NCBI GenBank assembly: GCA_004297165.1
Contig: SCUJ01000006.1
Span: 1,052,464 to 1,116,463 of the forward strand
Length of the DNA: 64,000 nt
Origin: Gammaproteobacteria bacterium
GTDB lineage: Bacteria > Pseudomonadota > Gammaproteobacteria > Eutrophobiales > Eutrophobiaceae
Reading direction: 5' to 3'
Below are positions 27,537 to 56,001 of the stretch, one piece after another. A model generated the notes under the pieces. The model ran no database searches. It was not told where the DNA came from and saw only the letters and a list, made by a program, of their open reading frames with translations. The translations under genes and the position numbers were made by a program. Numbering within the stretch: the stretch's first letter is position 1; the number at the start of each line of letters is the position of its first letter.

Positions 27537-28372
27537 ACGAGACTGCGGTTGCGCTCAACAAACCGACCCCGGCGGATTACCGCTCGGGGATCAAGCCGAT
27601 CTGGTGCCCCGGTTGCGGGGATTACTCCGTGCTGCTCGAGATCACCAAGGCGCTGGCCGCGCTCGAACTCCCGGCGGCGGAGGTCGCCATCGTCTCCGGG
27701 ATCGGTTGTTCCTCGCGGATCCCGGCCTACAGCAGTTGCTACGGGTTTCATGGGGTGCACGGGCGCGCCCTGCCGGTGGCGACCGGCCTCAAGGTCGCGC
27801 GTCCGGACCTTACCGTGATCGCGACCGGCGGCGACGGCGACGGATTCTCCATCGGCGGCAATCATTTTCTCCATGCCTGCCGGCGCAATGTCGATATCAC
27901 TTATATCGTCATGGACAACCAGGTCTATGGCATGACCAAGGGCCAGGCCTCGCCCACCACCGATCCCGACTGGGACAGCGTCCTGACGCCGGGCGGCACC
28001 GGGATACGCCCCTTTCAGCCGCTGGTGATCGCACTCGCCTCGGGCGCGAATTTCGTCGCCCGCGGCTTTGCCGGCGATCCGGCGGGCACGACCGAGATGA
28101 TCATCGAGGGGATCAAGCACCCCGGATTCTCCTTCATCCAGATCCTGAGCCCCTGCGCCACCTTCCGCCCGGATCAGCGGGAATGGCGCAACCTGGTCCG
28201 GCCGGCCCCGGTCCCCTTCACCACCGATCCGTCCCGCGCCGCCAACCGCATCATGACCGATGACGGCTTCAATCTCGGGATCCTCTATCGCGGCGATCGC
28301 CCGCCCTATGAATCAGGACGGAAGTCCGAGCCCAGGGATATTGATGCGATCGCGGAGGAATTCGTCCTATGA
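27533..28372 (+). CDS. korB: 2-oxoglutarate:ferredoxin oxidoreductase beta subunit (TPP-binding)
   Basis: MNETAVALNKPTPADYRSGIKPIWCPGCGDYSV... and the GDGDGFSIGGNH TPP motif. ATGA overlap with korA. Confidence 0.85.
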   Translation: MNETAVALNKPTPADYRSGIKPIWCPGCGDYSVLLEITKALAALELPAAEVAIVSGIGCSSRIPAYSSCYGFHGVHGRALPVATGLKVARPDLTVIATGGDGDGFSIGGNHFLHACRRNVDITYIVMDNQVYGMTKGQASPTTDPDWDSVLTPGGTGIRPFQPLVIALASGANFVARGFAGDPAGTTEMIIEGIKHPGFSFIQILSPCATFRPDQREWRNLVRPAPVPFTTDPSRAANRIMTDDGFNLGILYRGDRPPYESGRKSEPRDIDAIAEEFVL

Positions 28373-35496: not shown

Positions 35497-35580
35497 CGGC
35501 AGGCGGGATTGACTCAACCCGCGGATACCCATACATTGTCCGCGATTTTTTTAAAGCCACCGGAACCACAGGCTCAGCCC

Positions 35581-39383: not shown

Positions 39384-40010
39384 ATGAGCACGCATAAACC
39401 GCCGCTGCGAAAGAAGGTAGCCATCGACTGGCGCGAGGTCCATCGGCGCCTTGAGATGGCCCGCGCTGACGCCGAGTGCATATGGGCGCCGGACGCCAGG
39501 GTGACCCAACGGGTACTAAAGGCCAGGGCGCAGGAACTGGCCAGGGAACCAGAAAAAGTGCAGCTCGCCGATGCGCAGGTGGAAATCCTGGAATTTATCC
39601 TGGCGCAAGAGAGGTATGCGGTCGAATCGCGACATGTCCGGGAGGTCTATCCTCTGGAGAATCTGACGCCGCTCCCCTGCACGCCGCCATTTGTGCTCGG
39701 CATCATCAATCTGCGCAGCGAGATTGTCTCAGTTATCGATATTAAAAAGTTTTTCGATCTGCCGGAGAAGGGGCTGACCGATCTCAACAAGGTCATCGTT
39801 CTCCAGTCCGGGCCGATGCTTTTCGGCATTCTTGCGGACATCATCGTCGGTGTGCGCCGGATCCGGGCGGCGGAAATCCAGCCGTCCCTGCCAACGCTCT
39901 CCGGTGTCCGGGAAAAATATCTGCGAGGCATCACCTCGGATCGAACGGTCCTGCTCGACGCGGGGAAACTCCTGGCGGACGAGCAAATCATCGTGCAGGA
40001 ACAGGTTTGA
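39384..40010 (+). CDS. cheW: CheW-like protein (WspD-like second coupling protein)
   Basis: 208 aa with a CheW domain (…YAVESRHVREVYPLENLTPLPCTPPFVLGIINLRSEIVSVIDI…). Confidence 0.8.
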   Translation: MSTHKPPLRKKVAIDWREVHRRLEMARADAECIWAPDARVTQRVLKARAQELAREPEKVQLADAQVEILEFILAQERYAVESRHVREVYPLENLTPLPCTPPFVLGIINLRSEIVSVIDIKKFFDLPEKGLTDLNKVIVLQSGPMLFGILADIIVGVRRIRAAEIQPSLPTLSGVREKYLRGITSDRTVLLDAGKLLADEQIIVQEQV

Positions 40011-40071: not shown

Positions 40072-41709
40072 ATGAGGTGGTTTTTCGATCTGACCACGCG
40101 GGGCAAGCTGCTCGTTTGTTTCGGTCTGATATTCGCTCTGTTGTCATGGGTGATTGCAACCGCGTACACCGGAATCGTTACCATCCGGGAGTCCCAGGAG
40201 CGTCTCTACGACGAACACTTCGCCAACGTGCGCGATCTGATGGTTCTGCGCGCGTATCAAAATCAGATACGGGCCCTGATGCTCGAAGTGCAGTTGTTGA
40301 CCCAACGCACGGAACAGGATCCGCTGCTGGCGCAGGCCGCGGAACGCTCGCTACAGATCGACCGCCTCATCCTCGACCTCCTGGCGCGGGCGAAGCGCGA
40401 CCCTCAGCGGCAGTCGCGGATCGAGGAGTTACAATCCACCTGGCAGGCATTCGCCAAAACCAAGGACACCGAGATCATTCCCCTGATCCTCGCCGGCAGG
40501 ATCGCCGAATCGCAGGAACTCGCGGCCGGTGTGCAACAAGGGCGGCAGCAGAAGATTCGCACCATCGCCGAGGAGTTAGGCAAGTTGGTCGAAGAAGATG
40601 CGCGCCTCGCCGTGGCTGATGCCGGCGTTCGGGCCAACCAGTCGTTTCGCATTTTTCTGTTGGTCGGGATAGCGGCCGTGGTGATCGGCATCGCGCTGGC
40701 GCTGTTAATGGAGCGGGTTATCGCGGGACCGTTGCGCGACTTGTCGCGCGCCGCGGATCAGGTCGCGTCGGGCATTCTCACCATCGATGTGCCCCAGGAC
40801 AATCGCGCCGACGAGGTCGGCACGCTGGTGCGCGCGTTCGGCGCCATGGTCGGGAACCTGCGGCGCACAACCCAGGAACTGAACGAAGGCGTCGGCGTAC
40901 TCGCTTCTTCGTCCAGCGAGATTCTCGCCACCACGGCGCAGGTCGCATCCAGCGCGGCGGAGACGGCCAGTGCGGTGAGCGAGACCACGGCCACGGTGGA
41001 GGAAGTCAAGCAGACGGCGCAGGTGGCGGGCCAGAAGGCGAAGTATGTTTCAGAAAGCGCCCAGAAAGCGGCGCAGGTTTCCCAGGCCGGCCGCAAGTCG
41101 GTGGAGAACGCCATCCAGGGCATGCAGCGCATCCAGGAGCAGATGGAATCGATCGCCGAAAGCATCGTGCGGCTGTCGGAGCAGAGTCAGGCGATCGGGG
41201 AGATCATCGCCGCGGTGAGCGATCTGGCGGAGCAATCGAACCTGCTGGCGGTGAACGCCGCCATCGAAGCAGCCAGGGCCGGCGAGCAGGGCAAGGGCTT
41301 CGGGGTGGTGGCGCAGGAAGTGAAGAGCCTGGCCGAACAGTCCAAGCAGGCAACCGCGCAGGTGCGCGCCATCCTCGGCGAGATCCAGAAAGCCACCGGC
41401 GCCGCGGTGCTGGCCACCGAGCAAGGGTCCAAGACGGTGGAAGCCGGCATGAAGCAATCCACGGAAACCGGCGAATCGATCCGCCTGCTGACCGACAGCA
41501 TCAATGAAGCGGCTCAGGCGGCGACGCAGATTGCGGCGTCGAGCCAGCAGCAGATAGTGGGCATGGATCAGGTAGCGCTGGCGATGGAGAACATCAAACA
41601 GGCCAGCGTGCAGAACGTGGCCGGCACCAAACAGGCGGAGACCGCTGCGCAGGGTCTGCATGAACTGGGACTGAAGCTGAAGCAATTGGCGGAGCAGAAC
41701 AAGGCATAA
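40072..41709 (+). CDS. Methyl-accepting chemotaxis protein (TM-periplasmic 4-helix-bundle sensor-TM-HAMP-MCP signalling domain; WspA-like)
   Basis: 545 aa. Two TM segments flank a ~150-aa periplasmic region. Highly conserved MCP signalling core (…[33 protein letters not shown]…). Confidence 0.85.
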
Positions 41710-41750: not shown

Positions 41751-43211
41751 ATGACCATCGGAAAAAAATTTTTCGGCGGCTACGCCCTTGTGCTGGCGCT
41801 TCTGGCAATCGTGATGTCTATCGCTTTCTACTCTCTCTCCAGAATTCAGGCGGCCTATGATGGATTCATCGACGTAGACGAGCGGCTGGTCGACGGCGCT
41901 GGTAAGTTGCGTTTCGAGATGAACGGTCAGGTTTCCAGCTACCGGGGCATTCTTCTCTACCCGGATCTCCAGAGCAGCCATCAGGAGGAATTGCTGGCTA
42001 GCCGACGCCGGGTCACCGAGGTCATCGGAACGATGCGCCAACTCGTTTACACCGCCGAAGAACGCAGCATGCTGGAGGAGATCGCAACCCAGCAGGCGAG
42101 GAACGAGCGGAATCAGGATCAGGTCATCGAACTAGCGCGGCAAGGAAAGCAGGCGGAGGCGCTGGCGCTGGGGATCGAGGAAGTCCGCCCCCTCAACCGC
42201 GCCCTGGACGACTTGGCGGAGCGCTTCCGCGACCGCCAATTGAAACTGTTGACAGAGGGAAGGACCGAACTCGCGGCGACGATTAATTTCTTCATGATCA
42301 TGATGGCAAGCGTCTCGCTGCTCGGATTCGTTGCCGGTCTGGGCATCGCGTTTTATCTCGGCCGCGCCATCACCAGCCAGTTACGCGAAAGCATCGCCCA
42401 ACTGTCGTCGTCCGCGGCCGAAATCCTCGCGACGACCGCGCAGGTGGCCTCCGGCGCCACCGAGACGGCGAGTGGGGTGAGCGAGACCACGGCGACGGTG
42501 GAGGAAGTGAAGCAGACGGCGCAGGTTTCCACCCAGAAGGCGAAGTACGTCTCCGAGAGCGCGCAGAAGGTCGCGCAGGTCTCGCAGTCCGGGCGCAAGT
42601 CGGTGGAAGACTCCATTCAAGGCATGCATGTCATCCAGGAGCAAATGGAATCCATTGCCGGGAGCATCGTGCGGCTCTCCGAGCAAAGCCAGGCGATCGG
42701 GGAGATCATCGCCACGGTGAACGATCTCACGGAGCAATCGAACCTGCTGGCGGTCAACGCCGCGATCGAGGCGGCCAGGGCCGGCGAGCAGGGCAAGGGT
42801 TTTGCCGTGGTGGCGCAGGAGGTGAAAAGTCTCGCGGATCAGTCCAGGCAGGCGACGGCGCAGGTGCGCGCCATTCTGGGCGACATCCAGAAAGCGACCA
42901 GCGCCGCGGTGCTGGCGACCGAGCAGGGCAACAGGGCGGTCGAGGCGGGGGTGAGGCAATCGGCGGAGACGGGCGAGTCGATCAGGCTCCTGGCCGAAAG
43001 CATCATGGAGGCGGCGCAGGCGGCGACCCAGATCGCGGCGTCGAGCCAGCAACAAATGGTGGGGATGGACCAGGTGGCGCTGGCGATGGAGAACATCAAG
43101 CAGGCCAGCATGCAGAACGTGGCGGGCGCCAGGCAGGCGGAAATCGCCGCCCACGATCTCAACGAACTGGGTCAGAAGTTGAATCACTTGATCGCAAGCA
43201 AATCCGACTGA
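41751..43211 (+). CDS. Methyl-accepting chemotaxis protein, paralog of the upstream MCP (different sensor, near-identical signalling domain)
   Basis: 486 aa. The C-terminal ~260 aa are nearly identical at protein and DNA level to 40072-41709. Confidence 0.85.
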
Positions 43212-43215: not shown

Positions 43216-45540
43216 GTGTCTGCCATGGCCAGGAAGAACGACGATTTCCAGAAAAGGCTCCTGGCGACCTTCCGGGTCGAGGCCAACGAGCATCTTCAGG
43301 CGATGTTTTCGGGTCTCGCCGAACTGGAAAAGACGCCGGCAGGAAACCAGCGGCTGGAAACCCTCGAGAGGGTCTATCGCGAGGCGCATAGTCTGAAGGG
43401 GGCTGCGCGGGCCGTGAACCTCGCGGAGATCGAGTCGGTGTGCCATGCGCTGGAAAATGTCTTCGCCGGGTTGAAGAGCAGCCTTGTTGCCGCTTCGCCG
43501 TCGCTTTTTGATCTCCTGCATAAGACCCTGGACGCTCTCGGAGGGCTTCTCGCCGCCGATGCGCAGACACAGACCGAAGTCCGGAAGCCGGTGGTTGCGA
43601 CGCTGATTCGGCAACTCGACTCTGTGGCGAGCGGTTCAGCCTCCGGGGATGCAGGTAACGCTTCGCCGCCGCCGGCGGCAACCCCTGCCCTTACAGTGGC
43701 CGAGCCCGCTGTGACTGCCGGTACTGAGTCAGTTCAGCAGACCTCCGGTCCCGGATCTGGGACGATCAGGGTTTATACGGAAAAACTCGACACGGTGATG
43801 CGGCAAGCGGAAGAACTGCTTGCGCCGCGGCTGACAGCGGGCCAACGCGCCGCGGAATTGCACGAATGCAGGACCGCGCTCGCTGTCTGGAAAAAGGAAC
43901 GGGTTAAAGTCGCTCCGGCTTTACGGGCGGTTGAGCGGTCCTTCATGCAGCCGGCCAAGACCCATGGCGCCGCAAGCGAGCGGCGAGAACTGACCCGGCT
44001 GCTTGAGTATCTGGAAACGGAGAACGCTTTATTGACCGGCCTCGAGGACCGGCTGGCGAAGCTGGAGCGGTCTGCCGGGCGCGATCAGCGCATGCTGGCC
44101 GTAATGACCGACAACCTGCTTCACGACGTGAAGGAGATGCACCTCTTGCCGTTCTCGTCGCTGCTCGAAGTTTTACCGCGGTTTACCCGTGAATTCGCCC
44201 GCGACCAGGCCAAGGAGGCGGTACTCGTCATTCAGGGAGGTGAGATCGAAATTGACCGGCGCATCCTGGAGGAAATGAAGGATCCGCTCATCCATATGCT
44301 CCGGAATTGCATCGATCATGGCATCGAGATGCCTGCGGAACGGGAGCGGAAACATAAACCAACGCACGGAACGATCACTATCGCAATTTCACAGAATGAC
44401 AGCGGCAAGGTCGAGATCCTCGTCGCCGACGACGGCGCTGGCATAGACGTGGCCAGGGTGAAATCCGCCGCCTGCAAGATCGGCATCGTATCCGCCGAAG
44501 AAGCGCACAAGCTCGGCGAACAGGAGGCGATCGCGCTCGCCTTCCAGTCCGGCATTTCAACCAATCCCATCATCACGGACAGTTCCGGGCGGGGACTCGG
44601 GCTTGCCATCGTTAGGGAAAAGATCGAGCGTCTCGGCGGCGCTATCGCCGTCGAATCGCGTACCGATGCGGGAACGAGCTTCCGCATGGTCGTGCCGCTG
44701 ACCCTTGCCACGTTTCGGGGCATCCTCGTGCGCGCCGGTGAACAACTTTTTGTGATTCCCGCAATCAACGTCGAACGGGTGGCGCGAGCGGGTCTGGAGG
44801 AAATACGGACCGTGGAAAACCGCGAAACGATTCCACTCGACGGCCAGCCCGTTTCTCTGGTCTGGCTCAGCGACGTGCTGGAGCTCTCGCGTAAGGGCGC
44901 CGCGGACAGACCAGTGGATAAGGCGCAGGTGGTTGTTCTCAGCCTGGGTCTCACGCGTATTGCATTCCGGGTGGAAGAAATCCTCGGCGAGCAGGAGGTG
45001 TTGGTCAAGGCGCTCGGCCCGCAACTCGCGCGCGTGCGCAACGTTGCCGGCGCGACTGCACTGGGAACGGGTCAGGTGGCGCCGGTGCTGAACGCGCCGG
45101 ACCTGATAAAGTCGGCCATGAAACTGGCCGGGGCTCCGAGCGCGCACGCGGCCATCGAGCAATCCACGGATTTGAAAAAACAATCCATCCTCGTCGTGGA
45201 GGACTCAATCACCTCTAGGGCTCTGCTGAAGAACCTATTGGAAGCGGCTGGTTACACAGTCGCCACGGCGGTGGACGGCGTCGATGCCTATACCTCGCTC
45301 AAGACCGGCGCGTTCGATCTGGTGGTGTCCGACGTGGAGATGCCGCGCATGGATGGATTTGATCTTACGGCCAAAGTACGGGCGGACAAGCGGTTGTCGG
45401 AGTTGCCCATAGTCCTGGTCACGGCGCTGGAGTCGCGCGAGCATAGGGAGCGCGGGGTCGACGCCGGCGCGAATGCCTACATCGTCAAAAGCAGCTTCGA
45501 TCAGAGCAACCTGCTGGAAGTGATCGGGAGACTGATATGA
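43216..45540 (+). CDS. cheA: Hybrid chemotaxis histidine kinase CheA with C-terminal receiver domain (CheA-CheY fusion, WspE-like)
   Basis: Hpt (…EAHSLKGAARAV…), dimerisation, HATPase_c (…DDGAGIDV…GRGLGLAIV…), CheW-like domain, then REC (ILVVEDS…DVEMPRMDG…). Confidence 0.85.
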   Translation: MSAMARKNDDFQKRLLATFRVEANEHLQAMFSGLAELEKTPAGNQRLETLERVYREAHSLKGAARAVNLAEIESVCHALENVFAGLKSSLVAASPSLFDLLHKTLDALGGLLAADAQTQTEVRKPVVATLIRQLDSVASGSASGDAGNASPPPAATPALTVAEPAVTAGTESVQQTSGPGSGTIRVYTEKLDTVMRQAEELLAPRLTAGQRAAELHECRTALAVWKKERVKVAPALRAVERSFMQPAKTHGAASERRELTRLLEYLETENALLTGLEDRLAKLERSAGRDQRMLAVMTDNLLHDVKEMHLLPFSSLLEVLPRFTREFARDQAKEAVLVIQGGEIEIDRRILEEMKDPLIHMLRNCIDHGIEMPAERERKHKPTHGTITIAISQNDSGKVEILVADDGAGIDVARVKSAACKIGIVSAEEAHKLGEQEAIALAFQSGISTNPIITDSSGRGLGLAIVREKIERLGGAIAVESRTDAGTSFRMVVPLTLATFRGILVRAGEQLFVIPAINVERVARAGLEEIRTVENRETIPLDGQPVSLVWLSDVLELSRKGAADRPVDKAQVVVLSLGLTRIAFRVEEILGEQEVLVKALGPQLARVRNVAGATALGTGQVAPVLNAPDLIKSAMKLAGAPSAHAAIEQSTDLKKQSILVVEDSITSRALLKNLLEAAGYTVATAVDGVDAYTSLKTGAFDLVVSDVEMPRMDGFDLTAKVRADKRLSELPIVLVTALESREHRERGVDAGANAYIVKSSFDQSNLLEVIGRLI

Positions 45541-45562: not shown

Positions 45563-46612
45563 ATGATAAAAGTCCTGGTGGTGGAAGATTCGCCCGCGGT
45601 GCGCGAGTTTCTCGTTCACCTGTTCGGTTCCGATCCCGGCATCAAGGTGGTAGGAACGGCGAACGATGGGGAGCAAGCACTCGACGCCGTGCGGCGCCAT
45701 CGACCCGACGTGATCACGATGGACATCCACATGCCGAGAATGGACGGGCTGGATGCCACGCGCCGGATTATGGAAACGTACCCCACGCCTATCGTCATCG
45801 TCAGCGGAAGCACTGATCCGCGGGAGGTCGCGACCACGTTTCGCGCGATGGAGGCGGGCGCCGTGGCCGTGTTGCGTCGGCCGGCGGGCATCGGTCATCC
45901 GGACCATGAAGCCACCGCCGGCGAGTTGATCCGGACCGTGAAACTGATGTCCGAGGTCAAGGTAATCAAGCGCTGGCCCAAGGGTCAGCGCCGCGCGGAG
46001 GTCCCGCGTACGGCGGCGGCAAATCCCGTGCTGGTCGAAGCGAGAGTAAAGGTCATCGCCATCGGCGCCTCGACCGGCGGTCCACCCGTGCTGCAAACCA
46101 TTCTCGCGGCGCTGCCGCGGGATTTGCCGACGCCGGTGCTGATTGTGCAGCACATGGCTGCCGGATTCACTCAGGGGTTCGTCCAGTGGCTGGCACAAAC
46201 GTCCAGCCTGCCCGTGCATCTTGCCGCGCACGATGAACCTGTCCGTCCGGGCCATGTGTATGTGGCCCCCGATGAATTTCAGATGCGCGTCGAGCGGAGC
46301 GGAAAAATCGTCCTGACGAAAGACGCGCCAGAGAACGGATTGCGTCCTTCAGTTTCCTATCTTCTGCGTTCGGTGACTGAGGTCTATGGAAGCGATGCCA
46401 TAGCCGGCCTGCTCACCGGCATGGGACACGACGGCGTCGAGGAGTTGCGGCAGTTGAAGGACAAAGGTGCGATTACATTCGCCCAGGACAAGGACAGCTC
46501 AGTCGTGCACGGCATGCCGGGCGAAGCGATCAAGCGCGATGCGGCGACGCTGGTTCTCCCACCAGAGAAAATTGCCGCGACGCTGGCGAATCTAGCGAAA
46601 AATCACATGTAA
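45563..46612 (+). CDS. cheB: Chemotaxis response regulator protein-glutamate methylesterase CheB (REC plus CheB methylesterase; WspF-like)
   Basis: REC (KVLVVEDS…DIHMPRMDG) plus methylesterase (IAIGASTGGP…). Confidence 0.85.
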   Translation: MIKVLVVEDSPAVREFLVHLFGSDPGIKVVGTANDGEQALDAVRRHRPDVITMDIHMPRMDGLDATRRIMETYPTPIVIVSGSTDPREVATTFRAMEAGAVAVLRRPAGIGHPDHEATAGELIRTVKLMSEVKVIKRWPKGQRRAEVPRTAAANPVLVEARVKVIAIGASTGGPPVLQTILAALPRDLPTPVLIVQHMAAGFTQGFVQWLAQTSSLPVHLAAHDEPVRPGHVYVAPDEFQMRVERSGKIVLTKDAPENGLRPSVSYLLRSVTEVYGSDAIAGLLTGMGHDGVEELRQLKDKGAITFAQDKDSSVVHGMPGEAIKRDAATLVLPPEKIAATLANLAKNHM

Positions 46613-46627: not shown

Positions 46628-49588
46628 ATGAAAACCAAGAAAAACAAGATGGGCGGCGTGGAGATCCTCATCGCCGAGGACAGTGCAACGCAAAGAAAGC
46701 AGTTGGAGCATTTGCTGTGCGAGCACGGCTATGCGGTCGTTGCCGCGCCCGACGGCAAACAGGCCCTGGCGGCGGCCCGCGGGCGCAAGCCGTCTCTCAT
46801 CATCAGCGATGTCATGATGCCGGAACTGGACGGCTTCGCGCTGTGCCGGGAAATCAAGCGTGACGAGCAACTCAAGGACGTTCCGGTGATCCTGCTCACC
46901 TCGCTCACCAACGTGCGGGACATCATGCAGGGGCTGGAATGCGGCGCCGATAATTTCATCCGCAAGCCGTACGAGGAGCGCTACCTGCTCGCCCGCGTCG
47001 ATTACCTGCTGATGAACCGCGAACTGCGCAAGAATCAGAAAATGAGCATGGTGGTGGAAATCTATCTCGGCGGGCAGCGGCATTTCATCACCGCCGAGCA
47101 ACAGCAGATCGTGGACTTGCTGATTTCGATCTACGAGGAGGCCGTCCACATCAACGAGGAACTTAAGGTGCGGCAGCGCGAGCTGGCGGACTCGAACCAG
47201 TCCTTGTCCGCCCTCTACCGGGTAGCGCAGGGACTGAATCACGCGGTGAGCGAGCGCGAGGTCTGCGAGAGGTCGCTCGAACACGCGCTGGAGCTGCCGG
47301 GAGTGTGGGCGGGGTGGATCTCCCTGTGGGAGAAGGAGACCAATGCCTTTCGCACGGCGGCGGTGCGCAACCTGCCACCCGCGCTGCAGGGCGAAGGCGC
47401 TATGGGGGGCTCTTGCGAGTGTCAGCGGCGGCTCATTGCGGGAGAGCTTAATCACGTCACCAATATCCTGGAGTGCGAACGGTTGAAGGACGCCGCGGAG
47501 GGCAACCGCGGCCTGCGCTACCACGCCAGCGTCCCGTTGCGGATCGGCGACCGGAACCTGGGCATCATGAACCTGGTGGGGGCGGAGCAAGGCTTGTTCA
47601 GGGATGACGAACTGGAAACGCTCTACGGGATCGGGAATCAGATGGCTGTGGCGCTGGAGCGGGCCCGGCTGCACGAGCACCTGGAGCGACTGGTGGAGGA
47701 GCGCACCGTGGCGCTCACCGCGGAGATCGCCGAGCGCAAGGAACAGGAGGCGAGGGTCATCCGGCTCAATCGCATCTACAGCGTACTCAGCGGCATCAAT
47801 ACCACCATCGTGCGCGTCCGCGAACGGCAGCAACTCTTCGACGAGGCGTGCCGCATTGCGGTGGAGCATGGCAAGTTCGTATTCGCCTGGATCGGCACTC
47901 TTGATGCTGACACCCGGCAGGTCACGCCGCTCGCCAAGGCAGGCCGCGACGGCGGCTACCTGGCGCAGATCAATCTGACCGCCTTGGCGGACGCTCCTGG
48001 AAATTGCCCGCTGATCGCGCGGGCGCTGAATCAAGCGAGCCCGGTGATTTGCAACGACATCGCCACGGACGAGGCCATGCTATCGTGGCGCGCCGAAGCG
48101 TTGCGCCGCGGCTATCGTTCGGTGGCGGTGTTCCCGCTCGTTGTGGAAGACCGGCCAATCGGCGTGTTCCCGCTCTACGCGCCGGAGCCGAATGCCTTCG
48201 ACGAGGAGGAGATGAGACTGCTGGTCGAGATGGCCGGCGATATTTCGTTCGCTCTGGACCACCTCAAGAAAGAGGAACAGCTCAACTATCTCGCCTGTTT
48301 CGACCCTCTTACGGGGCTTCCGAACCGGGCATTGTTTTGGGATCGTCTCGATCAGCGGGTCGGCATCGCGCGCCGCGACCAACAGGCATTCTCCGTGATC
48401 ATGCTCGACATCGAGCGGTTCAGCGCCGTCAACGAAACCCTGGGCCGGCAGGTCGGAGACGAACTGTTGCGTCAGTTCGCCCGGCGCCTGAAGCAGGCGT
48501 TCGACGAAACCGACCTCCTGGCGCGTCTCGCGGACGACCGTTTCGGCCTCGCTACGAGGCATGGCGATGACGGCGCGGACATCGCCCATATCCTCGAGCG
48601 GATTATTTCCGGTATCCAGGGGCAGGCGTTTCGAGTAGAAGGCAGCGAGTTGCGTGTCGCGGCGAAAGCGGGGGTGGCGTCCTTCCCCGCCGACGGCGAG
48701 GACGTGGAGGACCTATACCGCAATGCCGAGGCGGCGCTGAAAAAAGCCAAGCTCTCGGGAGACAGATACCTGTTCTACACCCCCGAGTTCAATGCCCGGG
48801 TGGCCGAGAAACTGGCGCTTGAAAACAAGCTGCGCCGCGCGCTGGAGGAAGAACAACTGGTTCTGTATTACCAGCCGAAGATCGACCTCATAACGGGGCG
48901 GATCAGCGGGCTGGAGGCGTTGATGCGCTGGAACGATCCCGAGACAGGCCTGGTCCCGCCGCTGAAGTTCATCCCCCTGCTTGAGGAAACGGGGATGATC
49001 CTCGAGGCAGGCCGTTGGGCCCTGGCGCAGGGGTTATCGGATTACCGGATGTGGCGGGCGAAAGGCCTGCAGTCCCCGCGGATCGCCGTCAATGTATCGC
49101 CGATCCAGCTCCGGCAGAAGGATTTCGTAGCCACAGTGGAGGGCTTGCTGGACGGGGCCGGCGAGGCGGCTGCCGGGCTGGAGCTGGAGATTACCGAGAC
49201 CTTGATCATGCAGGACATCAAGGCGAACATCGGGAAGCTCAAGGCCATCCGGGAGATGGGGATCAGGGTCGCGATCGACGATTTCGGCACCGGTTATTCA
49301 TCGCTCAGCTATATCGCCCGGCTGCCCATCGGCGCCCTGAAGATTGATCGGGCGTTCATCGCAAACATGACGAGCAGCCCCGACGATCTGAGCATCGTGT
49401 CCACGATCATTGCCCTGGCGCATTCCCTGAATTTAAGGGTCACTGCGGAAGGCGTAGAAACCGAGGAACAGGTAAAACTCCTGAGATTGCTCAAATGCGA
49501 CGAGTTCCAGGGCTACCTGTACAGTCCCGCGGTCCCGGCGGAGGGAATCGAACAGTTCCTGCGCGAGGACAAATCACAGCCGGGTTAG
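46628..49588 (+). CDS. Response regulator: REC-GAF(Cys motif)-coiled coil-GAF-degenerate GGDEF-EAL (predicted c-di-GMP phosphodiesterase)
   Basis: REC (VEILIAEDS…DVMMPELDG), GAF with GSCECQRRLIAGEL…LECERL, a second GAF, GGDEF with the GG(D/E)EF site replaced (…DDRFGLA…), and an intact EAL (GLEALMRWN, DDFGTGYSSL). Confidence 0.8.
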   Translation: MKTKKNKMGGVEILIAEDSATQRKQLEHLLCEHGYAVVAAPDGKQALAAARGRKPSLIISDVMMPELDGFALCREIKRDEQLKDVPVILLTSLTNVRDIMQGLECGADNFIRKPYEERYLLARVDYLLMNRELRKNQKMSMVVEIYLGGQRHFITAEQQQIVDLLISIYEEAVHINEELKVRQRELADSNQSLSALYRVAQGLNHAVSEREVCERSLEHALELPGVWAGWISLWEKETNAFRTAAVRNLPPALQGEGAMGGSCECQRRLIAGELNHVTNILECERLKDAAEGNRGLRYHASVPLRIGDRNLGIMNLVGAEQGLFRDDELETLYGIGNQMAVALERARLHEHLERLVEERTVALTAEIAERKEQEARVIRLNRIYSVLSGINTTIVRVRERQQLFDEACRIAVEHGKFVFAWIGTLDADTRQVTPLAKAGRDGGYLAQINLTALADAPGNCPLIARALNQASPVICNDIATDEAMLSWRAEALRRGYRSVAVFPLVVEDRPIGVFPLYAPEPNAFDEEEMRLLVEMAGDISFALDHLKKEEQLNYLACFDPLTGLPNRALFWDRLDQRVGIARRDQQAFSVIMLDIERFSAVNETLGRQVGDELLRQFARRLKQAFDETDLLARLADDRFGLATRHGDDGADIAHILERIISGIQGQAFRVEGSELRVAAKAGVASFPADGEDVEDLYRNAEAALKKAKLSGDRYLFYTPEFNARVAEKLALENKLRRALEEEQLVLYYQPKIDLITGRISGLEALMRWNDPETGLVPPLKFIPLLEETGMILEAGRWALAQGLSDYRMWRAKGLQSPRIAVNVSPIQLRQKDFVATVEGLLDGAGEAAAGLELEITETLIMQDIKANIGKLKAIREMGIRVAIDDFGTGYSSLSYIARLPIGALKIDRAFIANMTSSPDDLSIVSTIIALAHSLNLRVTAEGVETEEQVKLLRLLKCDEFQGYLYSPAVPAEGIEQFLREDKSQPG

Positions 49589-49690
49589 ATTGGGAGAATA
49601 ACGAACCGGGGCGCGAACCTGCGGCAGGTCGTGAATCGCCGTGACGTAGGCGAATCGGGTAAACCACAGAGGCAAGACGAGGCACGATCC

Positions 49691-52600
49691 ATGAAATCCG
49701 GGAATAAATGGCGCGGCGGCATCGAAATCCTCATCGCCGAGGACAGCCGGACCCAGACGGAACGATTACGGCATCTGCTCGAGCAACGCGGCTATGCGGT
49801 CGTGACCGCCGCCAATGGCAAGCAGGCGCTTGAAACTGCTCGCAAACACGTTCCGACGCTGATCATCAGCGATGTCCTGATGCCGGAACTGGACGGCTAC
49901 GGCCTTTGCAAGTCGATCAAGGCCGACGAGAAGCTGAGGGATATCCCGGTCATGCTGGTGACCACGCTCTCCGACCCTCAGGACGTCATCCGGGGCCTGG
50001 AGTGCGGGGCGGACAACTTCATCCGCAAGCCGTACGAAGACAAATTCCTGCTGTCGCGCATCGACTACCTGCTGATGAACATCGAACTGCGCAAAAACCA
50101 GAAAGTGCAGATGGGCGTGGAGATCAAGCTGGGCAACCGGAAACATTTCATCAGCGCCGAGCGCCAGCAGATACTGGACCTGCTGATCTCGACCTTCGAG
50201 CAGGCGGTGCAGATCAACGAAGAACTCAAGCTGCGGGATAAGGAACTGGCGCATTCCAACCAGGTGCTCAACGGACTCTACCTCATTGCCGAAGGACTGA
50301 ATAAGGCAGTCACTGAACAGGAAGTCGCGGAAACAGTGCTGGAACGGGCGCTGGAACTGCCGGGAATCCAGGCCGGCTGGATCTCCCTGCGGGAAGGAGA
50401 ATCTGGCTTCCGGCTGCTCGCCGCGCGCAACTTGCCGCACGCACTCGAGGCGCCCGGCGCCATGGAGGGCGATTGCGCCTGCCGTCGCCGACTGGTTTCC
50501 GGCGAACTCACCTCGGTCATGAACACACTGGAGTGCGAAAGGCTGGAAAGAACCGGGGGCGACGCGCGCGGGCTGCGCTACCACGCCAGCGTTCCGCTTT
50601 GGCTGGGCGAGCGGACGGTGGGCGTGATGAACCTGATCGGACCGAGAAAAGGCCTGTTCAATGAGGATGAATTGCGGATCCTGTACGGGATAGGCAATCA
50701 GGTCGCGGTAGCGCTTGAGCGGGCGGGCCTGCGCGAGCATCTGGAGCAGTTGGTAAGTGAGCGAACCGCCAAGCTCGAAACGGAAATTGCGGAGCGAAAA
50801 CGAATCGAGAAGGAACAGGCGCGGCTGGTGGCGATCATCGAGACCACCTCCGATTTTATCGGGACCAGCGACCCGGATGGCAAGGTGCTTTACCTGAACC
50901 AAGCGGGCCTGCGGATGCTCGGATACGAATCGGCACAGGACATGCCCATGGCGCGGATCGCTGAAGTCCATCCGGAGTGGGCGGCGAAGCTGGTGCTGGA
51001 GGCGGGTATCCCCCACGCCCTCGATCATGGAAGCTGGAGTGGGGAAACCGCCTTCCTGCACCGCAATGGGCGCGAGATCCCGGTTTCGCAGGTCATCATC
51101 GCGCACAAGGGGGCAAACGGCTCGGCCGAGTTCCTGTCGACAATAGCGCGCGACATTACCGCGCCCAAGGAGGCGGAGCGCAGGATCCGGATGCAATTGG
51201 ATAACTTGGGCCTGTTGGATCAGATCACCCGCGCGATAGGCGAGCGCCAGGATTTGCGCAGCATTTTTCAGGTGGCTATCAGAAGCCTCGAGGACAGCCT
51301 GCCGATCGATTTCGGTTGTATCTGCCTGCATGACCCGACTGCCAATGCCCTGACTGTCGACTGCGTCGGAGTGAAGAGCGAGACGCTGGCTCATTCACTG
51401 ACGATGGATGAACGGACGATTATCGGCGTCGACGACAATGGCCTGGGGCGCTGTGTCCAGGGGCTACTGATCTATGAGCCGGATATAGGCCAGGCGCCAT
51501 TCCCGTTTACCGAGCGCCTCGCCCGCGGTGGATTGCGATCGGTGGTTCTGGCGCCATTGGGGGTAGAAAGCCGGGTCTTCGGCGTGCTGGTTGCCGCGCG
51601 TCACAGGGCCAGCGCCTTCAGCAGCGTCGAGTGCGAGTTCCTGCGGCAGTTGAGCGAGCACGTGGCGCTCGCCGCCCACCAGGCGCAACTCTACGACGCC
51701 CTGCGACAGGCCTACGACGACCTGCGCCAGACCCAGCAGGCGGTGATGCAGGAGGAGCGCCTGCGCGCGTTGGGGCAGATGGCGAGCGGCATTGCCCACG
51801 ACATCAACAATGCCCTTTCGCCTGTATCGCTGTATGTGGAATCGTTGCTGGACACGGAGAAGAACCTCAGCAAAAGGGCTCGCGGTTACCTGGAGACCGT
51901 TCAACGAGCGGTCGAGGATGTGGCGCAGACAGTGGCGCGCATGCGCGAGTTTTACCGCAAACGCGAGCAACAGATCGAGCTTGCGCCCGTGCATATGAAC
52001 GACATGGTGCGGCAGGTTGTCAATCTGACCCGTGCCCGTTGGAGCGACCAGCCGTTGCAAAACGGCATCGTAATCCGAGTGCTGATGGAACTCGCGCCCA
52101 ATCTGCCGGAGATCATGGGGGTGGAGAGCGAGTTCCGCGAGGCGCTCACCAACCTGGTCTTCAACGCCGTGGACGCCATGCCGGAAGGCGGCCACCTGAA
52201 GCTGCGAACCAGGCTCGTCGCTTCCGGCAAGGGAAGGTCAAGTGTGGAGGTCGAGGTCGAGGACAGCGGCAGCGGCATGGACGAAGACACGCGCCGGCGT
52301 TGTCTAGAGCCGTTCTTTACCACCAAGGGCGAGCGCGGCACGGGCCTGGGCCTCGCCATGGTGTTCGGGATGGCGCAGCGGCACAGCGCCGAGATCGAGA
52401 TCGGCAGCGCTCTTGGCGTCGGTACTATTGTGCGGCTGATTTTTGCAGTTCCTTCCGCCATACAGACGGATACTTCCGGACAACCCGTGAATGAGCCCGA
52501 TCCGCCGTTGCGGCTGCGCCTGCTGCTGATAGACGATGACCCGATCCTCTTGCAGTCGCTGCGCGATGCGCTGGAGGCGGATGGCCATATCATCATTACG

Positions 52601-52906
52601 GCGAACAGCGGCGAAGCGGGCATTGCCGCGTTCCATGCCTCTCTCGATCGCGGTGAATACTGCGCCGCGGTGATCACCGACCTTGGCATGCCCCACGTGG
52701 ATGGCCGCCAGGTTGCCGCCACCGTAAAGAAAGCCACCCCCGCCATGCCGGTGATCCTTCTTACGGGCTGGGGTCGGCGGCTGGTCGCGGAAGGCGAAAT
52801 CCCGCCGCACGTCGACCGCGTTCTGGCAAAACCGCCAAAACTGCGCGAGCTGCGCGAAGCCCTCGCGCAACTCTGCCGACCTGTACCATCCGGGGCGAAT
52901 ACATGA
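49691..52906 (+). CDS. Hybrid sensor histidine kinase/response regulator: REC-GAF(Cys motif)-PAS-GAF-HisKA-HATPase-REC
   Basis: The N-terminal REC-GAF is paralogous to 46628-49588 (…GDCACRRRLVSGEL…LECERL). H-box MASGIAHDINNAL. HATPase (…GTGLGLAMV…). C-terminal REC (LLLIDDDP…). The start may be the GTG at 49631 instead. Confidence 0.8.
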   Translation: MKSGNKWRGGIEILIAEDSRTQTERLRHLLEQRGYAVVTAANGKQALETARKHVPTLIISDVLMPELDGYGLCKSIKADEKLRDIPVMLVTTLSDPQDVIRGLECGADNFIRKPYEDKFLLSRIDYLLMNIELRKNQKVQMGVEIKLGNRKHFISAERQQILDLLISTFEQAVQINEELKLRDKELAHSNQVLNGLYLIAEGLNKAVTEQEVAETVLERALELPGIQAGWISLREGESGFRLLAARNLPHALEAPGAMEGDCACRRRLVSGELTSVMNTLECERLERTGGDARGLRYHASVPLWLGERTVGVMNLIGPRKGLFNEDELRILYGIGNQVAVALERAGLREHLEQLVSERTAKLETEIAERKRIEKEQARLVAIIETTSDFIGTSDPDGKVLYLNQAGLRMLGYESAQDMPMARIAEVHPEWAAKLVLEAGIPHALDHGSWSGETAFLHRNGREIPVSQVIIAHKGANGSAEFLSTIARDITAPKEAERRIRMQLDNLGLLDQITRAIGERQDLRSIFQVAIRSLEDSLPIDFGCICLHDPTANALTVDCVGVKSETLAHSLTMDERTIIGVDDNGLGRCVQGLLIYEPDIGQAPFPFTERLARGGLRSVVLAPLGVESRVFGVLVAARHRASAFSSVECEFLRQLSEHVALAAHQAQLYDALRQAYDDLRQTQQAVMQEERLRALGQMASGIAHDINNALSPVSLYVESLLDTEKNLSKRARGYLETVQRAVEDVAQTVARMREFYRKREQQIELAPVHMNDMVRQVVNLTRARWSDQPLQNGIVIRVLMELAPNLPEIMGVESEFREALTNLVFNAVDAMPEGGHLKLRTRLVASGKGRSSVEVEVEDSGSGMDEDTRRRCLEPFFTTKGERGTGLGLAMVFGMAQRHSAEIEIGSALGVGTIVRLIFAVPSAIQTDTSGQPVNEPDPPLRLRLLLIDDDPILLQSLRDALEADGHIIITANSGEAGIAAFHASLDRGEYCAAVITDLGMPHVDGRQVAATVKKATPAMPVILLTGWGRRLVAEGEIPPHVDRVLAKPPKLRELREALAQLCRPVPSGANT

Positions 52907-55900
52907 TCCCCACTCCACTGGCCCGCATACTAATCGTCGACGACGAGGCAGCGCAGATGCGCGCTCTTTGCGATACGCTACGTGATCAGGGCTACGAAAC
53001 CACGGGCTGCGCGACGGGAGAAGATGCCCTCAAGGCATTACATGGAATGCAGTACGATCTGCTGCTCACCGATCTGATGATGCCGGGCATGGACGGCGTC
53101 GATCTGCTTGCTCAAGCCATGAAGATCGATCCGCAGATCGTCGGCATCCTCATGACCGGCATGGGCACGATCGAAACCGCGGTTCGCGCCATGCAGGCGG
53201 GGGCGCTCGATTATATAGTCAAACCTTTCAAGGTGAGCGTAATACTGCCAGTGCTCGAGCGCGCGCTGGGCATCCGGAGGTTGCGGCTGGAGAATATGGA
53301 ATTACGCAACACCGTGGCGTTCCACGAGTTGAATCAAGCCATCGCCTATACGCTTGACCCTAATGTCCTGCTCGAAAAGATCGCCAGCGCCGCGCTCGCG
53401 CAATTCGAGGCCGATGAGGCCTCGATCATGCTGCTCACCGACGACGGCCGTTCGCTCTACGTAGCGGCGGTTCAGGGCGGGCAAAGGGACACGCTGCTCG
53501 GTGCGCGCGTGCCTGTCGGCGAAGGCATCGCGGGCTGGGTGGCCGCGCGCCTCGAGCCGCTGGTGCTGGAAGGCGAAATCAAGTACCCGGGCCAGACGCC
53601 AGTTCATCCTCGCGCCGATATCCAATCCGCCTTGTCCATGCCCCTGATCGCGCGCAACAGGTTGATCGGCGTGATCAATGTCAGTTGCATCCGCAAGCGC
53701 CGGGCCTTCCCCATTGGGCAGGTCAATGTACTCAGCATCTTCACCAATGCCGCCGCCGCCGGCATCGAAGCGGCGCGTCTATACCAGGATGAGCGCAAGG
53801 CCGACGCGCGCTACCGCGAGGTGCTGCACATGGCCGCCGACGGCATCGTCTCGATCGATGAAGAACAGCGCATCGTCGTATTCAACGATAGCGCGGAAAA
53901 GCTTTTCGGCTACCGCGCCAATGAGGTCCTTGGCAGGCCGCTCGATCTACTCTTACCTGAGGCAGCCGCCGCCGCCCATCGCCAGCACGTGCCAGCCTTT
54001 GGAAAGGGCCCGGACCAATCGCGCGAGATGGGCATACTCGGCCAGCGGCTGTTCGGCCGGCGTAAGGACGGCGTGCTGTTTCACGTCGAAGTGGGGATTT
54101 CCAAGCGCCCGGAGAACGGCAAGCTGCTCTACACGGCGGTGGTGCGCGACATCACGCAACGCGTGCGACATGAAGACCGGATCGCGCGCTTGACCCGGCT
54201 CTACGCGACCCTCTCGGATATCAATTCCGCTATCGTGCGCATCACCGATGAGACCATGCTGTTCTCGGAGATCTGCCGGATCGCGGTCGAATGCGGCAAG
54301 TTCACCGCCGCGTGGATAGGAACTTACGACGAGAACGCCAGCGATATTGTACTGGTTACAAGCGCTGGCAACACACCCGCGAAAAATCGCTACCACATCG
54401 ACCCCAAGTCGCCTGAGGATCCGGGAAATACCTTAATCGCTATCCAGGAGAAACGGATCGTCTGGGACAACGACCTTGCCGCCACGCTGGATCGCGGAAC
54501 CACTCTGCGTAAGGACGCCATAGCGCTCGGCGCCCGCTCGGGTGCTATATTGCCGTTTATCCTCAACAACGCCGTTCGGGCGGTCATGTTCCTGAACTCC
54601 GATGCCCAGGATGCCTTCGGGGAAGAGGAGCTTGCCTTGTTGCACGAATTGGCTGGTGACGTCTCGTTCGCGCTTGATCACATTATAAAATCCGGGCAGG
54701 TAAAATATCTCGCCACTCACGATCAGTTGACCGATCTGCCGAACCGCGCGCTGTTCATGGACCTGCTCGCACAGTCCGTGTCCGCGGCACACGCCAAAGG
54801 AGAAATGCTGGCCGTCGTTTTTACCGATATTGAGCGCTTCAAACTGATCAATGACACATTCGGCCGGCTGGCGGGCGATCGGCTGTTGCGGCAAATCGCG
54901 GATCGCACCAAGAACATCGTCAGAGATCACTCCGGTCTCGCGCGGGTCGGCGCGAACAGTTTTGCCGCTATCCGCGGCAACTTCACGCAGGCCCTGGATC
55001 TGGCAAAAACCATCCTACATCGTATAGAAATGGTATTTTCCGAACCTTTCATGGTTGAAGGAAAGCTGCTGAATCTCTCCGCCCGTTGCGGAGTCGCAAT
55101 CTTTCCCACCGATGGCGCGAATGCCGAAACGCTTTTCAAGAACGCGGAAACGGCGCTTAAACGATCAAAGTCCATGCTTGAGCGAGTCGTCTTTTACACA
55201 CCTGATCTTAATGCCAGGATGGCGGAACAGCTCGCCTTGGAGAACAAGCTGCGCAAGGCGCTGGAGAAGGACGAATTCATCCTGCATTACCAACCCAAGA
55301 TCGATTTTGCCACGGGCCGCATCACCGGCTTCGAGGCGCTGATCCGGTGGCAGGACCCGGTGAGCGGGCTCGTGCCGCCGATGCGTTTCATCCCGCTGCT
55401 CGAGGAAACGGGCCTGATCCTCCCGGTGGGCCGCTGGGCGATCGCGGAGGCTGTGCGCACCATCGCGGCTCTGCGCGCCAAGGGCCTGCCCCAGGTGCGA
55501 ATTGCGGTCAACGTCTCCCCCATTCAGTTGCGGCAGACAGATTTTGTGCGTTCTGTCGAGGAAGCTATCGCGGTGGCGGGCGATGGACCACACGGCCTCG
55601 ATCTCGAGATCACCGAGAGCATGATCATGCACGACATCGAGGCGAATATCCGGACATTCAATACGCTACACAGCCTGGGTGTGGAACTCGCGATTGACGA
55701 TTTCGGCACCGGCTACTCATCGCTCGCCTACATGGCGCGCCTGCCCGTCGACACGATCAAGATAGACCGCCTTTTCATTCGGGATCTTACAGATAACGAA
55801 AACAGCCGATCGGTCGTTTCCTTGATCATCTCGCTGACGCACACGCTTGGCCGGAAGGCGGTTGCGGAGGGAGTGGAGACCGAGGCGCAGGCAAGGTTGC

Positions 55901-56001
55901 TGCGGCAACTCAACTGCGACCAGTACCAGGGCTTTCTGTTCAGCAAGCCGGTGGCAGTAACCGAAATCGAACGCTTGATGCTTGCTGCGCCAAATAAATA
56001 G
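52903..56001 (+). CDS. Response regulator: REC-GAF-PAS-GAF-degenerate GGDEF-EAL (predicted c-di-GMP phosphodiesterase)
   Basis: REC (ILIVDDEA…DLMMPGMDG), GAF, PAS (…VVFNDSAEKLFGY…), GAF, GGDEF-like with the motif lost (…RVGANSFAAI…), EAL intact (GFEALIRWQ). ATGA overlap with the kinase gene. Confidence 0.8.
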   Translation: MIPTPLARILIVDDEAAQMRALCDTLRDQGYETTGCATGEDALKALHGMQYDLLLTDLMMPGMDGVDLLAQAMKIDPQIVGILMTGMGTIETAVRAMQAGALDYIVKPFKVSVILPVLERALGIRRLRLENMELRNTVAFHELNQAIAYTLDPNVLLEKIASAALAQFEADEASIMLLTDDGRSLYVAAVQGGQRDTLLGARVPVGEGIAGWVAARLEPLVLEGEIKYPGQTPVHPRADIQSALSMPLIARNRLIGVINVSCIRKRRAFPIGQVNVLSIFTNAAAAGIEAARLYQDERKADARYREVLHMAADGIVSIDEEQRIVVFNDSAEKLFGYRANEVLGRPLDLLLPEAAAAAHRQHVPAFGKGPDQSREMGILGQRLFGRRKDGVLFHVEVGISKRPENGKLLYTAVVRDITQRVRHEDRIARLTRLYATLSDINSAIVRITDETMLFSEICRIAVECGKFTAAWIGTYDENASDIVLVTSAGNTPAKNRYHIDPKSPEDPGNTLIAIQEKRIVWDNDLAATLDRGTTLRKDAIALGARSGAILPFILNNAVRAVMFLNSDAQDAFGEEELALLHELAGDVSFALDHIIKSGQVKYLATHDQLTDLPNRALFMDLLAQSVSAAHAKGEMLAVVFTDIERFKLINDTFGRLAGDRLLRQIADRTKNIVRDHSGLARVGANSFAAIRGNFTQALDLAKTILHRIEMVFSEPFMVEGKLLNLSARCGVAIFPTDGANAETLFKNAETALKRSKSMLERVVFYTPDLNARMAEQLALENKLRKALEKDEFILHYQPKIDFATGRITGFEALIRWQDPVSGLVPPMRFIPLLEETGLILPVGRWAIAEAVRTIAALRAKGLPQVRIAVNVSPIQLRQTDFVRSVEEAIAVAGDGPHGLDLEITESMIMHDIEANIRTFNTLHSLGVELAIDDFGTGYSSLAYMARLPVDTIKIDRLFIRDLTDNENSRSVVSLIISLTHTLGRKAVAEGVETEAQARLLRQLNCDQYQGFLFSKPVAVTEIERLMLAAPNK

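Follow-up and report, generated by a model that had tools for sequence, protein, structure and literature searches.

A three-cysteine relative of the AirS sensor domain in predicted output proteins of a Wsp-like chemosensory cluster

Our analysis concerns a stretch of 64,000 nucleotides, hereafter the window, from contig SCUJ01000006.1 of a gammaproteobacterial assembly (GCA_004297165.1; positions 1,052,464 to 1,116,463, forward strand), and two paralogous signalling proteins which it encodes: protein A (46628-49588, 986 residues) and protein B (49691-52906, 1,071 residues). Both start with a receiver domain (REC), followed by a conserved linker and by a GAF domain, GAF1, which harbors three cysteines and a histidine. 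Sequence comparison establishes that this cysteine-bearing domain (Cys-GAF) is homologous to the sensor domain of the AirS/YhcY-type kinases, with the putative ligands in residue-level register. We consider it probable that GAF1 of both proteins is a three-cysteine variant, joined by the histidine, of the AirS-type iron-sulfur GAF domain.

Conserved cysteines and histidine in GAF1

The motif of protein A reads C263-x-C265-x17-C283, with a C-E-R-L block at the third cysteine and with His299 16 residues further on; that of protein B reads C262-x-C264-x17-C282, followed by His298. Both histidines lie within an LRYHASVPL block (G-L-R-Y-H-A-S-V-P-L in A). The cysteine segments occupy window positions 47414-47476 in A and 50474-50536 in B. 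With the histidine included, the putative ligand set of A, assigned from conservation and from the AirS-type alignment, extends over 47414-47524 (Cys263 47414-47416, Cys265 47420-47422, Cys283 47474-47476, His299 47522-47524), and the conserved Arg285 (47480-47482) stands beside it. The corresponding set of B, placed by alignment and by a hidden Markov model (HMM) of the family, extends over 50474-50584 (Cys262 50474-50476, Cys264 50480-50482, Cys282 50534-50536, His298 50582-50584). The residues in front of the CxC pair are AMGGS-C-E-C in A and AMEGD-C-A-C in B, with no cysteine upstream.

The Pfam family GAF_2 (PF13185) puts the motif block in the first GAF domain of each protein, with whole-protein scores, summed over two GAF stretches, of 136 bits for A and 99 bits for B (cutoff 28.6); the best stretch in B, residues 207-343, is GAF1. 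An earlier reading made from the sequence only had pointed to three cysteines in this block of A and B, and both sites were found as described, being the only two places in the six reading frames of the window where the full motif occurs. The five other GAF domains of the window, those of a third receiver protein, C, included, lack the full motif at the corresponding columns and carry at the CxC columns either the canonical G-x-G-x-x-G pocket loop or unrelated residues.

The nearest relative of the Cys-GAF domain is the GAF domain immediately after it. GAF2 of protein A (47822-48259) scores 103 bits against the family HMM and has the residues C-I-D-A-V at the five key columns, thus keeping the first cysteine only. 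The second GAF domains of three collected proteins (P0015, P0017 and P0033) read C-I/L-D-A/.-V and likewise retain the first cysteine alone. GAF2 of A looks like a degenerate internal duplicate of the Cys-GAF domain, as judged from these residues.

Conservation was measured on 122 domains with family-HMM scores of 100 bits or more, which are 22-68% identical to A; they come from the best 149 further representatives, clustered at 50% identity, of an exhaustive HMMER search. C263 is conserved in 97.6% of them, C265 and C283 each in 95.1%, H299 in 94.3% and Arg285 in 92.7%. The four motif residues are among the best-conserved columns, and their neighbours 264, 282 and 298 vary widely. Of the seven motif exceptions, six are other GAF domains with lower scores, and in three of these six cases the domain is a second GAF beside a motif-bearing one; in one first-GAF representative glutamine replaces the histidine. 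Fixed ligand-type residues amid drifting neighbours are what a cofactor site looks like in an alignment, and the motif greatly exceeds what chance would give. The cysteines are near-invariant across phyla, and the possibility raised at the outset that they would not be conserved in homologues is thereby clearly refuted. A word-indexed search with GAF1 retrieved only 14 relatives, and the cysteines are present in all of them where the region is covered.

Homology to the AirS/YhcY sensor domain

The literature (PMC4601167, PMC8774646) describes for Staphylococcus aureus an N-terminal C-x7-C-x-C-x17-C motif by which AirS binds a redox-active [2Fe-2S] cluster. As stated there, the oxidised cluster gives full kinase activity and the reduced one low activity, and hydrogen peroxide or nitric oxide (NO) destroys or nitrosylates the cluster.

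In a tblastn search of a plasmid collection, GAF1 matched two Bacillus kinases of the YhcY type (loci L083 and L084, E 1e-18 and 1e-13). Both loci encode a GAF-HisKA_3-HATPase kinase and then a NarL-type regulator; in the B. thuringiensis locus an FMN azoreductase follows the regulator, and a member of one Bacillus cluster is annotated as "Two-component sensor protein yhcY". The record of L084, NZ_CP093325.1, is named "plasmid p1" of Bacillus sp. N5-665; at 5.5 Mb and with only 25 annotated features it is evidently a chromosome that was deposited under a plasmid name. Both kinases carry C-x3-C-W-C-x17-C-K-R-I-x16-H-H-A-T-(V/I)-P-L, and they align with A and B free of gaps through the whole segment, the three cysteines, the arginine, the histidine and other signature residues being invariant.

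With the Bacillus GAF domain as query, 33 Firmicute relatives were found. An extra cysteine upstream of the motif occurs at spacing x3 in the Bacillus-type proteins and at spacing x7 in a second group, which thus has the exact published AirS motif. Within the Firmicute set P0292-P0317, two proteins (P0297 and P0303) have both the x3 and the x7 cysteine and one (P0305) has neither. The upstream cysteine is present in 24 of the 25 motif-bearing Firmicute matches; among all collected proteins a cysteine at most 12 residues upstream of the motif accompanies 7 of 235 motif occurrences. Because its position shifts between lineages, the alignments suggest that the fourth cysteine sits on a flexible loop and does not belong to the ancestral ligand set. 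By the same comparison, the conserved core of the whole superfamily comprises three cysteines and one histidine, and the fourth cysteine is a Firmicute feature.

A representative locus of the x7 group has a GC content of 30% and encodes a fumarate lyase (fumC), a pseudouridine synthase, the kinase and a REC-GerE (NarL-type) regulator. AirS of S. aureus USA300 is given as SAUSA300_1799 in PMC8774646, and fumC of this strain is SAUSA300_1801, which matches this gene order. By its motif, its GC content of 30% and its fumC synteny the locus is assigned as a staphylococcal airSR locus. GAF1 of A aligns with the staphylococcal GAF domain at 25% identity (BLASTP E 2e-14) with the cysteines and the histidine in register. 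Profile-profile comparison of the two families (hhalign) gave a probability of 99.9% and an E of 2.9e-32 over 193 columns. The CxC-x17-C segment aligns free of gaps, with C84, C86 and C104 invariant. The sequence-only reading had proposed a ligated metal, an iron-sulfur cluster or another redox sensor in GAF1, and this proposal now has a basis in homology to the AirS/YhcY domain, the cofactor itself being predicted. The conserved histidine, the absence of the fourth cysteine of AirS and the role of the gene as a conserved output of a chemosensory cluster go beyond what that reading contained.

Predicted structure of GAF1

Structure prediction, which had been named as a check, returned a confident GAF fold. 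The AlphaFold2 model of residues 180-364 of A (47165-47719; 287 bits against the family HMM) has a mean predicted local distance difference test score (pLDDT) of 87.3 and a predicted template modelling score (pTM) of 0.82, and GAF1 is flanked in it by a 25-residue N-terminal and a 38-residue C-terminal helix. The corresponding region of B, GAF1 with its flanking helices, lies at 50228-50779 and scores 296 bits. In the model the short helix that follows strand 2 (helix 3) has C263 and C265 at its N-terminus; helix 4, which comes after strand 3, has C283 at its own; and strand 4 opens with H299. These secondary-structure elements line the ligand pocket in characterised GAF domains, and the CxC pair stands where the canonical glycine-rich pocket loop lies in other GAF domains of the window. 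The top Foldseek matches in the PDB (3ci6, 3k2n and 3p01, probability 1.0) are all GAF domains. Sequence and Foldseek searches of the PDB found generic GAF domains only, with no homologue of the metal site and no solved member of the family.

Paralogy, extent and branches of the family

The N-terminal 388 residues of A, i.e. the module of receiver, linker and GAF1, are 62% identical to those of B (BLASTP E 2e-158), and the DNA is 70% identical over 1,096 nucleotides (E 3e-143), so that the paralogy noted before at both levels holds. At third codon positions, however, the identity is only 54%, and both A (80%) and B (76%) have orthologs in other genomes that are closer to them than the paralogs are to each other. 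Because of these two facts the duplication is judged to be old, with both copies maintained. B likely starts at the ATG at 49691, since this choice brings the N-termini of the two proteins into alignment.

Between the receiver and GAF1 lies a module of about 60 residues (residues 125-185; 47000-47182 in A, 50063-50245 in B) with the consensus YLLMN.ELRKNQK..M.VEI.LG...HFI.AE.QQI.DLLIS..E.AV.INEELK, over which the Pfam scan gave no match. It is kept in 71 of 80 related loci at 46-88% identity, and in the REC branch of the family it seems obligatory wherever the Cys-GAF domain occurs. These 80 loci, on which all statistics of taxa, neighbours and linker are based, are the best of at least 491 that were found when one genome of each GTDB species was scanned. 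The scan pattern contained the histidine peptide, so that only the conservation of the cysteines (96%) is independent there. In the exhaustive HMMER search the REC and generic GAF columns of the profile pushed the counts too high, and the size of the family was not taken from them. NCBIfam has no specific model over the Cys-GAF domain.

The best 80 loci come mostly from Betaproteobacteria (Thiobacillus, Sulfuriferula, Sulfuritalea, Gallionella, Sideroxydans, Rhodoferax), and further carriers among them are Rhodanobacter, NC10/Methylomirabilis, Acidobacteriota, Gemmatimonadota and others. Members of the REC-linker-GAF branch have the x17 spacing and outputs of the EAL, HisKA kinase, HD-GYP and multi-GAF kinds. 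A sister branch consists of short kinases that have a GAF domain at the N-terminus and HisKA_3, with x19 spacing, each paired with a NarL-type regulator; its taxa are Chloroflexota, Rubrobacter/Actinomycetota and Vicinamibacterales. The Chloroflexota/Actinomycetota branch comprises 821 clusters, and among the matches listed the motif is present in 116 of 116 sister-branch (HisKA_3) sequences. A profile search with the GAF domains of the Chloroflexota branch returned no Firmicutes among the 120 matches listed. The neighbourhoods of two sister-branch kinases contained the cognate NarL-type regulator only and no informative regulon. One collected protein, P0159 from a Latescibacterota metagenome-assembled genome (MBI4553146.1), has a plant-type [2Fe-2S] ferredoxin domain (Fer2, 41 bits) N-terminal to a Cys-GAF-HisKA_3 kinase.

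Outputs and chemosensory context

Proteins A, B and C form the distal end of a same-strand, tightly spaced gene cluster, all genes of which lie on the forward strand. It starts with a CheR methyltransferase with a C-terminal TPR region (37910-39364; Pfam CheR 1.6e-47 and TPR families) and a CheW coupling protein (39384-40010; Pfam CheW 1.7e-28). Two methyl-accepting chemotaxis proteins (MCPs) follow, with the Pfam architectures 4HB_MCP_1-HAMP-MCPsignal (40072-41709) and 4HB_MCP_1-MCPsignal (41751-43211), then a hybrid CheA (Hpt-HATPase-CheW-REC, 43216-45540) and a CheB methylesterase (REC-CheB_methylest, 45563-46612), likewise assigned by Pfam. The last of these adjoins protein A on its 5' side, the cheB stop being separated from the start of A by 16 nucleotides. 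B and C overlap by 4 nucleotides and belong to the same operon.

By its open reading frame, Pfam matches and motif check, protein A has the architecture REC-linker-Cys-GAF1-GAF2-degenerate GGDEF-EAL. Its receiver covers residues 13-124 (46664-46999; Pfam Response_reg 3.3e-26), and the GGDEF (residues 557-711) and EAL (residues 733-967) domains lie together at 48296-49528. The GGDEF site is degenerate (ADDRF, residues 635-639). The EAL domain (242 bits in Pfam) has all its catalytic motifs intact: EALMR, DDFGTG, KID and EGVE, at residues 763, 884, 905, 941 and 961 with QG included. Because the GGDEF site is degenerate while all EAL catalytic motifs are intact, protein A is expected to be a phosphodiesterase of cyclic di-GMP (c-di-GMP). 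Protein B is, by open reading frame and Pfam, REC-linker-Cys-GAF1-PAS-GAF-HisKA-HATPase_c-REC. The outputs had been read before as a c-di-GMP phosphodiesterase and a histidine kinase, and the intact EAL of A and the HisKA (PF00512)-HATPase-REC part of B agree with that. Protein C (52903-56001; Pfam and motif check) is REC-GAF-PAS-GAF-GGDEF-EAL, with a degenerate GGDEF domain, in which a search for the GG(D/E)EF active-site motif gave no match, and with the full set of EAL catalytic motifs.

The gene neighbourhood is shared by relatives. In 58 of the 80 related loci the gene directly upstream of the Cys-GAF gene is cheB. CheA is found further upstream in 44 of them and MCPs in 25, the last two counts being limited by the 6-kb flank. 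Since the cheB-adjacent position is conserved, gene order indicates that the Cys-GAF protein is a conserved output regulator of the pathway. A hybrid CheA-REC and a CheR-TPR are features of the Wsp-like, alternative-cellular-function class of chemosensory systems, to which the cluster is compared below.

Discussion

The reading that we favour may be put in terms of a mechanism as follows. In the GAF pocket of protein A, Cys263, Cys265 and Cys283 would bind an iron-sulfur cluster, whose fourth ligand is probably His299. By analogy with AirS the cluster would be [2Fe-2S], but it might instead be [3Fe-4S] or site-differentiated [4Fe-4S]. The GAF domain would change its conformation with the redox state or the integrity of the cluster, on which oxygen, hydrogen peroxide, NO or a cellular reductant would act, and the long helices around the domain would modulate how far phosphorylation of the receiver reaches the output. 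The presumed phosphodonor of the N-terminal receivers is the hybrid CheA of the neighbouring Wsp-like cluster; as output, the EAL domain of A would hydrolyse c-di-GMP and the hybrid kinase B would autophosphorylate. The module would thus join a chemosensory signal from outside with the redox state inside the cell. Cluster binding in the three-cysteine form, the histidine ligand, CheA as phosphodonor and the direction of regulation are what we infer here.

A further step may be taken by analogy with the three-cysteine cluster of NreB (see below), which we regard as doubtful: the site would have an exchangeable coordination position, occupied by His299 or by hydrosulfide, a thiol, NO or an oxygen-derived species, and would act as a redox or small-molecule gate through which CheA phosphorylation passes to c-di-GMP hydrolysis and phosphorelay, i.e. 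as a two-input logic element.

Several points weigh against an iron-sulfur cluster in GAF1. The first cysteine of the AirS motif is absent from the proteins of the window, and a cluster held by three cysteines is argued for by homology to the four-cysteine AirS. As the histidine is invariant in the four-cysteine clade too, it does not have to stand in for a missing ligand; in all clades alike it may either be a ligand or belong to the second shell. Residue sets of the CxC...C...H kind can also bind zinc or copper. The comparison with AirS was made with staphylococcal and Bacillus orthologues in place of S. aureus AirS, and the AirS sensor domain is classed as GAF by the Pfam matches of these orthologues, without a published statement; further papers on AirSR do not state the type of the sensor domain. 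The ligand set is placed in the GAF pocket at the secondary-structure level of the model only. Finally, recurrent fusions with a ferredoxin domain were searched for among the collected proteins, and P0159 was the sole case. On the other side, that fusion lends slight support to a cluster, as does the concentration of carriers at oxic-anoxic interfaces, e.g. Thiobacillus, Sulfuriferula, Gallionella, Sideroxydans, Rhodanobacter and NC10; the oxygen-sensitive anaerobic enzymes encoded in the window fit as well.

One might argue that the three cysteines and the histidine bind a single metal ion: zinc in a structural site or in a zinc-thiolate redox switch of the Hsp33/RsrA type, mononuclear Fe(II), or Cu(I). 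Three thiolates and one imidazole are a classic zinc ligand set, the zinc centre of Hsp33 being CxC...CxxC, and loss of the fourth cysteine of AirS might have altered the cofactor. Mononuclear iron or zinc in GAF pockets is also documented for NorR and, in PMC12754779, for PexR; however, these sites are rich in aspartate and histidine with one cysteine, unlike the site in GAF1. The homologous AirS site was isolated with [2Fe-2S], and the ferredoxin-domain fusion suggests electron transfer, which is impossible for zinc. We therefore take a single metal to be unlikely. It is improbable that the site is a metal-free thiol switch which forms reversible disulfides, sulfenates or persulfides on oxidants or reactive sulfur species and thereby alters the GAF conformation. 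Such a switch would agree with the conservation of the three cysteines and with the many sulfur oxidisers among family members, and in kind it would resemble the chemistry of fRMsr, a GAF-fold enzyme whose active site has three cysteines. However, a profile search of the whole PDB sequence set brought up no fRMsr chain, even with E allowed to reach 10, thiols at CxC spacing give strained disulfides, and the switch would leave unexplained the conserved histidine and arginine as well as the homology to an iron-sulfur-binding site.

The residues might also be structural only, or serve an organic ligand or chromophore, such as a cysteine-attached bilin as in cyanobacteriochromes, with no redox sensing at all. 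The Cys-His dipeptide is the bilin attachment site, and none is present in the motif block. Phytochrome and cyanobacteriochrome GAF domains do occur among the many generic Foldseek matches, but they are 9-15% identical and no better than GAF domains without a chromophore. The inputs that c-di-GMP enzymes are known so far to take through GAF domains, namely bilin, cAMP and GDP (PMC8846402), would speak for an organic ligand; the homology to AirS points elsewhere, and four ligand-type residues fixed amid variable neighbours are typical of a metal site, so that this explanation is very improbable to us.

When compared with its closest relatives, the AirS/YhcY kinases, the cysteine domain of A and B shares a homologous GAF fold, the C-x-C-x17-C, Cys-x-Arg and His about 16 residues on in register, and the position of a cytoplasmic domain directly N-terminal to the signalling helix; the Chloroflexota/Actinomycetota clade additionally keeps the layout of a GAF-HisKA_3 kinase with a NarL-type regulator. 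The proteins of the window differ in that they lack the first cysteine (at x7 in staphylococci, x3 in Bacillus), that the domain is preceded by a receiver and a conserved linker, that the outputs are GAF-GGDEF(degenerate)-EAL or PAS-GAF-HisKA-HATPase-REC without a HisKA_3 kinase or NarL-type regulator, and that the genes are embedded in a Che-type operon. The cluster resembles the Wsp system of Pseudomonas with WspR in its hybrid CheA-REC, CheR-TPR, CheB, CheW and MCPs followed by receiver proteins of c-di-GMP turnover. In contrast to Wsp, the output comprises an EAL phosphodiesterase, a hybrid kinase and a third REC-GAF-PAS-GAF-EAL protein instead of a REC-GGDEF cyclase, one CheW is present instead of two, and a cofactor-type sensor domain is inserted between receiver and output.

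Other metal and cluster sensors offer analogies of lesser reach. NreB of B. licheniformis, a sulfide sensor, holds [2Fe-2S] in a PAS domain by three cysteines and a labile sulfur ligand (PMC13478379). It is alike in being a sensor-kinase input with three protein cysteines and one coordination position free for signalling chemistry, but the PAS fold, the C-x2-C-x11-C spacing and the lack of sequence relationship make it an analogy only. The GAF domain of Chloroplast Sensor Kinase (CSK)/Hik2 was reported to hold a [3Fe-4S] cluster which responds to redox state and controls the kinase; a single cysteine ligand, Cys19, was identified there, and the authors note no obvious cysteine motif (PMC6949291). 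We considered CSK/Hik2 as the closest analogue and rejected it for the Cys19 ligand and the lack of CxC...C...H, the comparison being made by description. NorR and PexR are alike in that a metal centre in a GAF pocket senses NO or hydrogen peroxide and gates a downstream domain, but their ligands are mainly aspartate, histidine and arginine with one cysteine and they have an AAA+ sigma-54 activator as output. Beyond the generic GAF fold, this analysis detected no similarity to them. In mitoNEET and other CDGSH proteins a redox-active, labile [2Fe-2S] cluster is bound by three cysteines and one histidine in C-x-C-x8-C-x3-H; the ligand chemistry is like that proposed for GAF1, but the fold is unrelated and the spacing much tighter, so that the analogy is a chemical one only. 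Two other candidates were set aside: PdtaS, in which iron/heme is bound by a PAS domain and which is thus irrelevant here, and membership of the fRMsr family, given the outcome of the PDB profile search described above.

What is new is a three-cysteine AirS-type GAF domain in a receiver-gated setting, with c-di-GMP and hybrid-kinase outputs and with a conserved role as output of a Che pathway; this extends a known kind of sensor rather than adding a new principle. AirS has so far been treated as a staphylococcal curiosity, and the AirS-type Cys-GAF domain is found here to be a large family that crosses phyla. We found no description of this family in the literature searched, and no structure of the AirS sensor domain turned up in the PDB searches. 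A census of c-di-GMP sensory inputs from 2022 (PMC8846402) lists no iron-sulfur input; if the cofactor is confirmed, it would be the first such input to c-di-GMP turnover in the literature that was searched. Lithotrophs and denitrifiers would then have a concrete mechanism that lets redox state bear on whether they form biofilm or move, and the ligand model of AirS-type sensors would have to be revised to a core of three cysteines and one histidine. If the gate suggested above is real, it would be a logic element conserved in the iron-oxidising, sulfur-oxidising and denitrifying bacteria of oxic-anoxic interfaces.

Other genes of the window

Just upstream of the Che cluster, a GAF-GGDEF protein (33708-34718) has an intact GGEEF motif and a GAF domain with the canonical GKGIAG pocket loop; from these motifs it is a probable active diguanylate cyclase. 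A dCache_3-HAMP-GGDEF-EAL protein at 61038-63404 is a further c-di-GMP protein, and the density of c-di-GMP signalling genes in the window is unusually high. A protein of the URO-D family (uroporphyrinogen decarboxylase/methyltransferase-like) is encoded at 35509-36933, shortly before the Che cluster.

The region 21798-28372 holds genes for a BcrAD/BadFG-type ATPase and an HGD-D component, of the benzoyl-CoA reductase/2-hydroxyacyl-CoA dehydratase type, together with a 2-oxoacid:ferredoxin oxidoreductase gene. These belong to oxygen-sensitive anaerobic metabolism and are compatible with a facultative anaerobe, the context which had been supposed from the sequence and which they fit. The GC content falls to 0.51 at 18001-20000, compared with about 0.60-0.64 elsewhere in the window, and this segment may be foreign DNA. 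An open reading frame of about 1,166 residues on the reverse strand (5490-8993) has a C-terminal Golvesin_C domain as its sole Pfam match.

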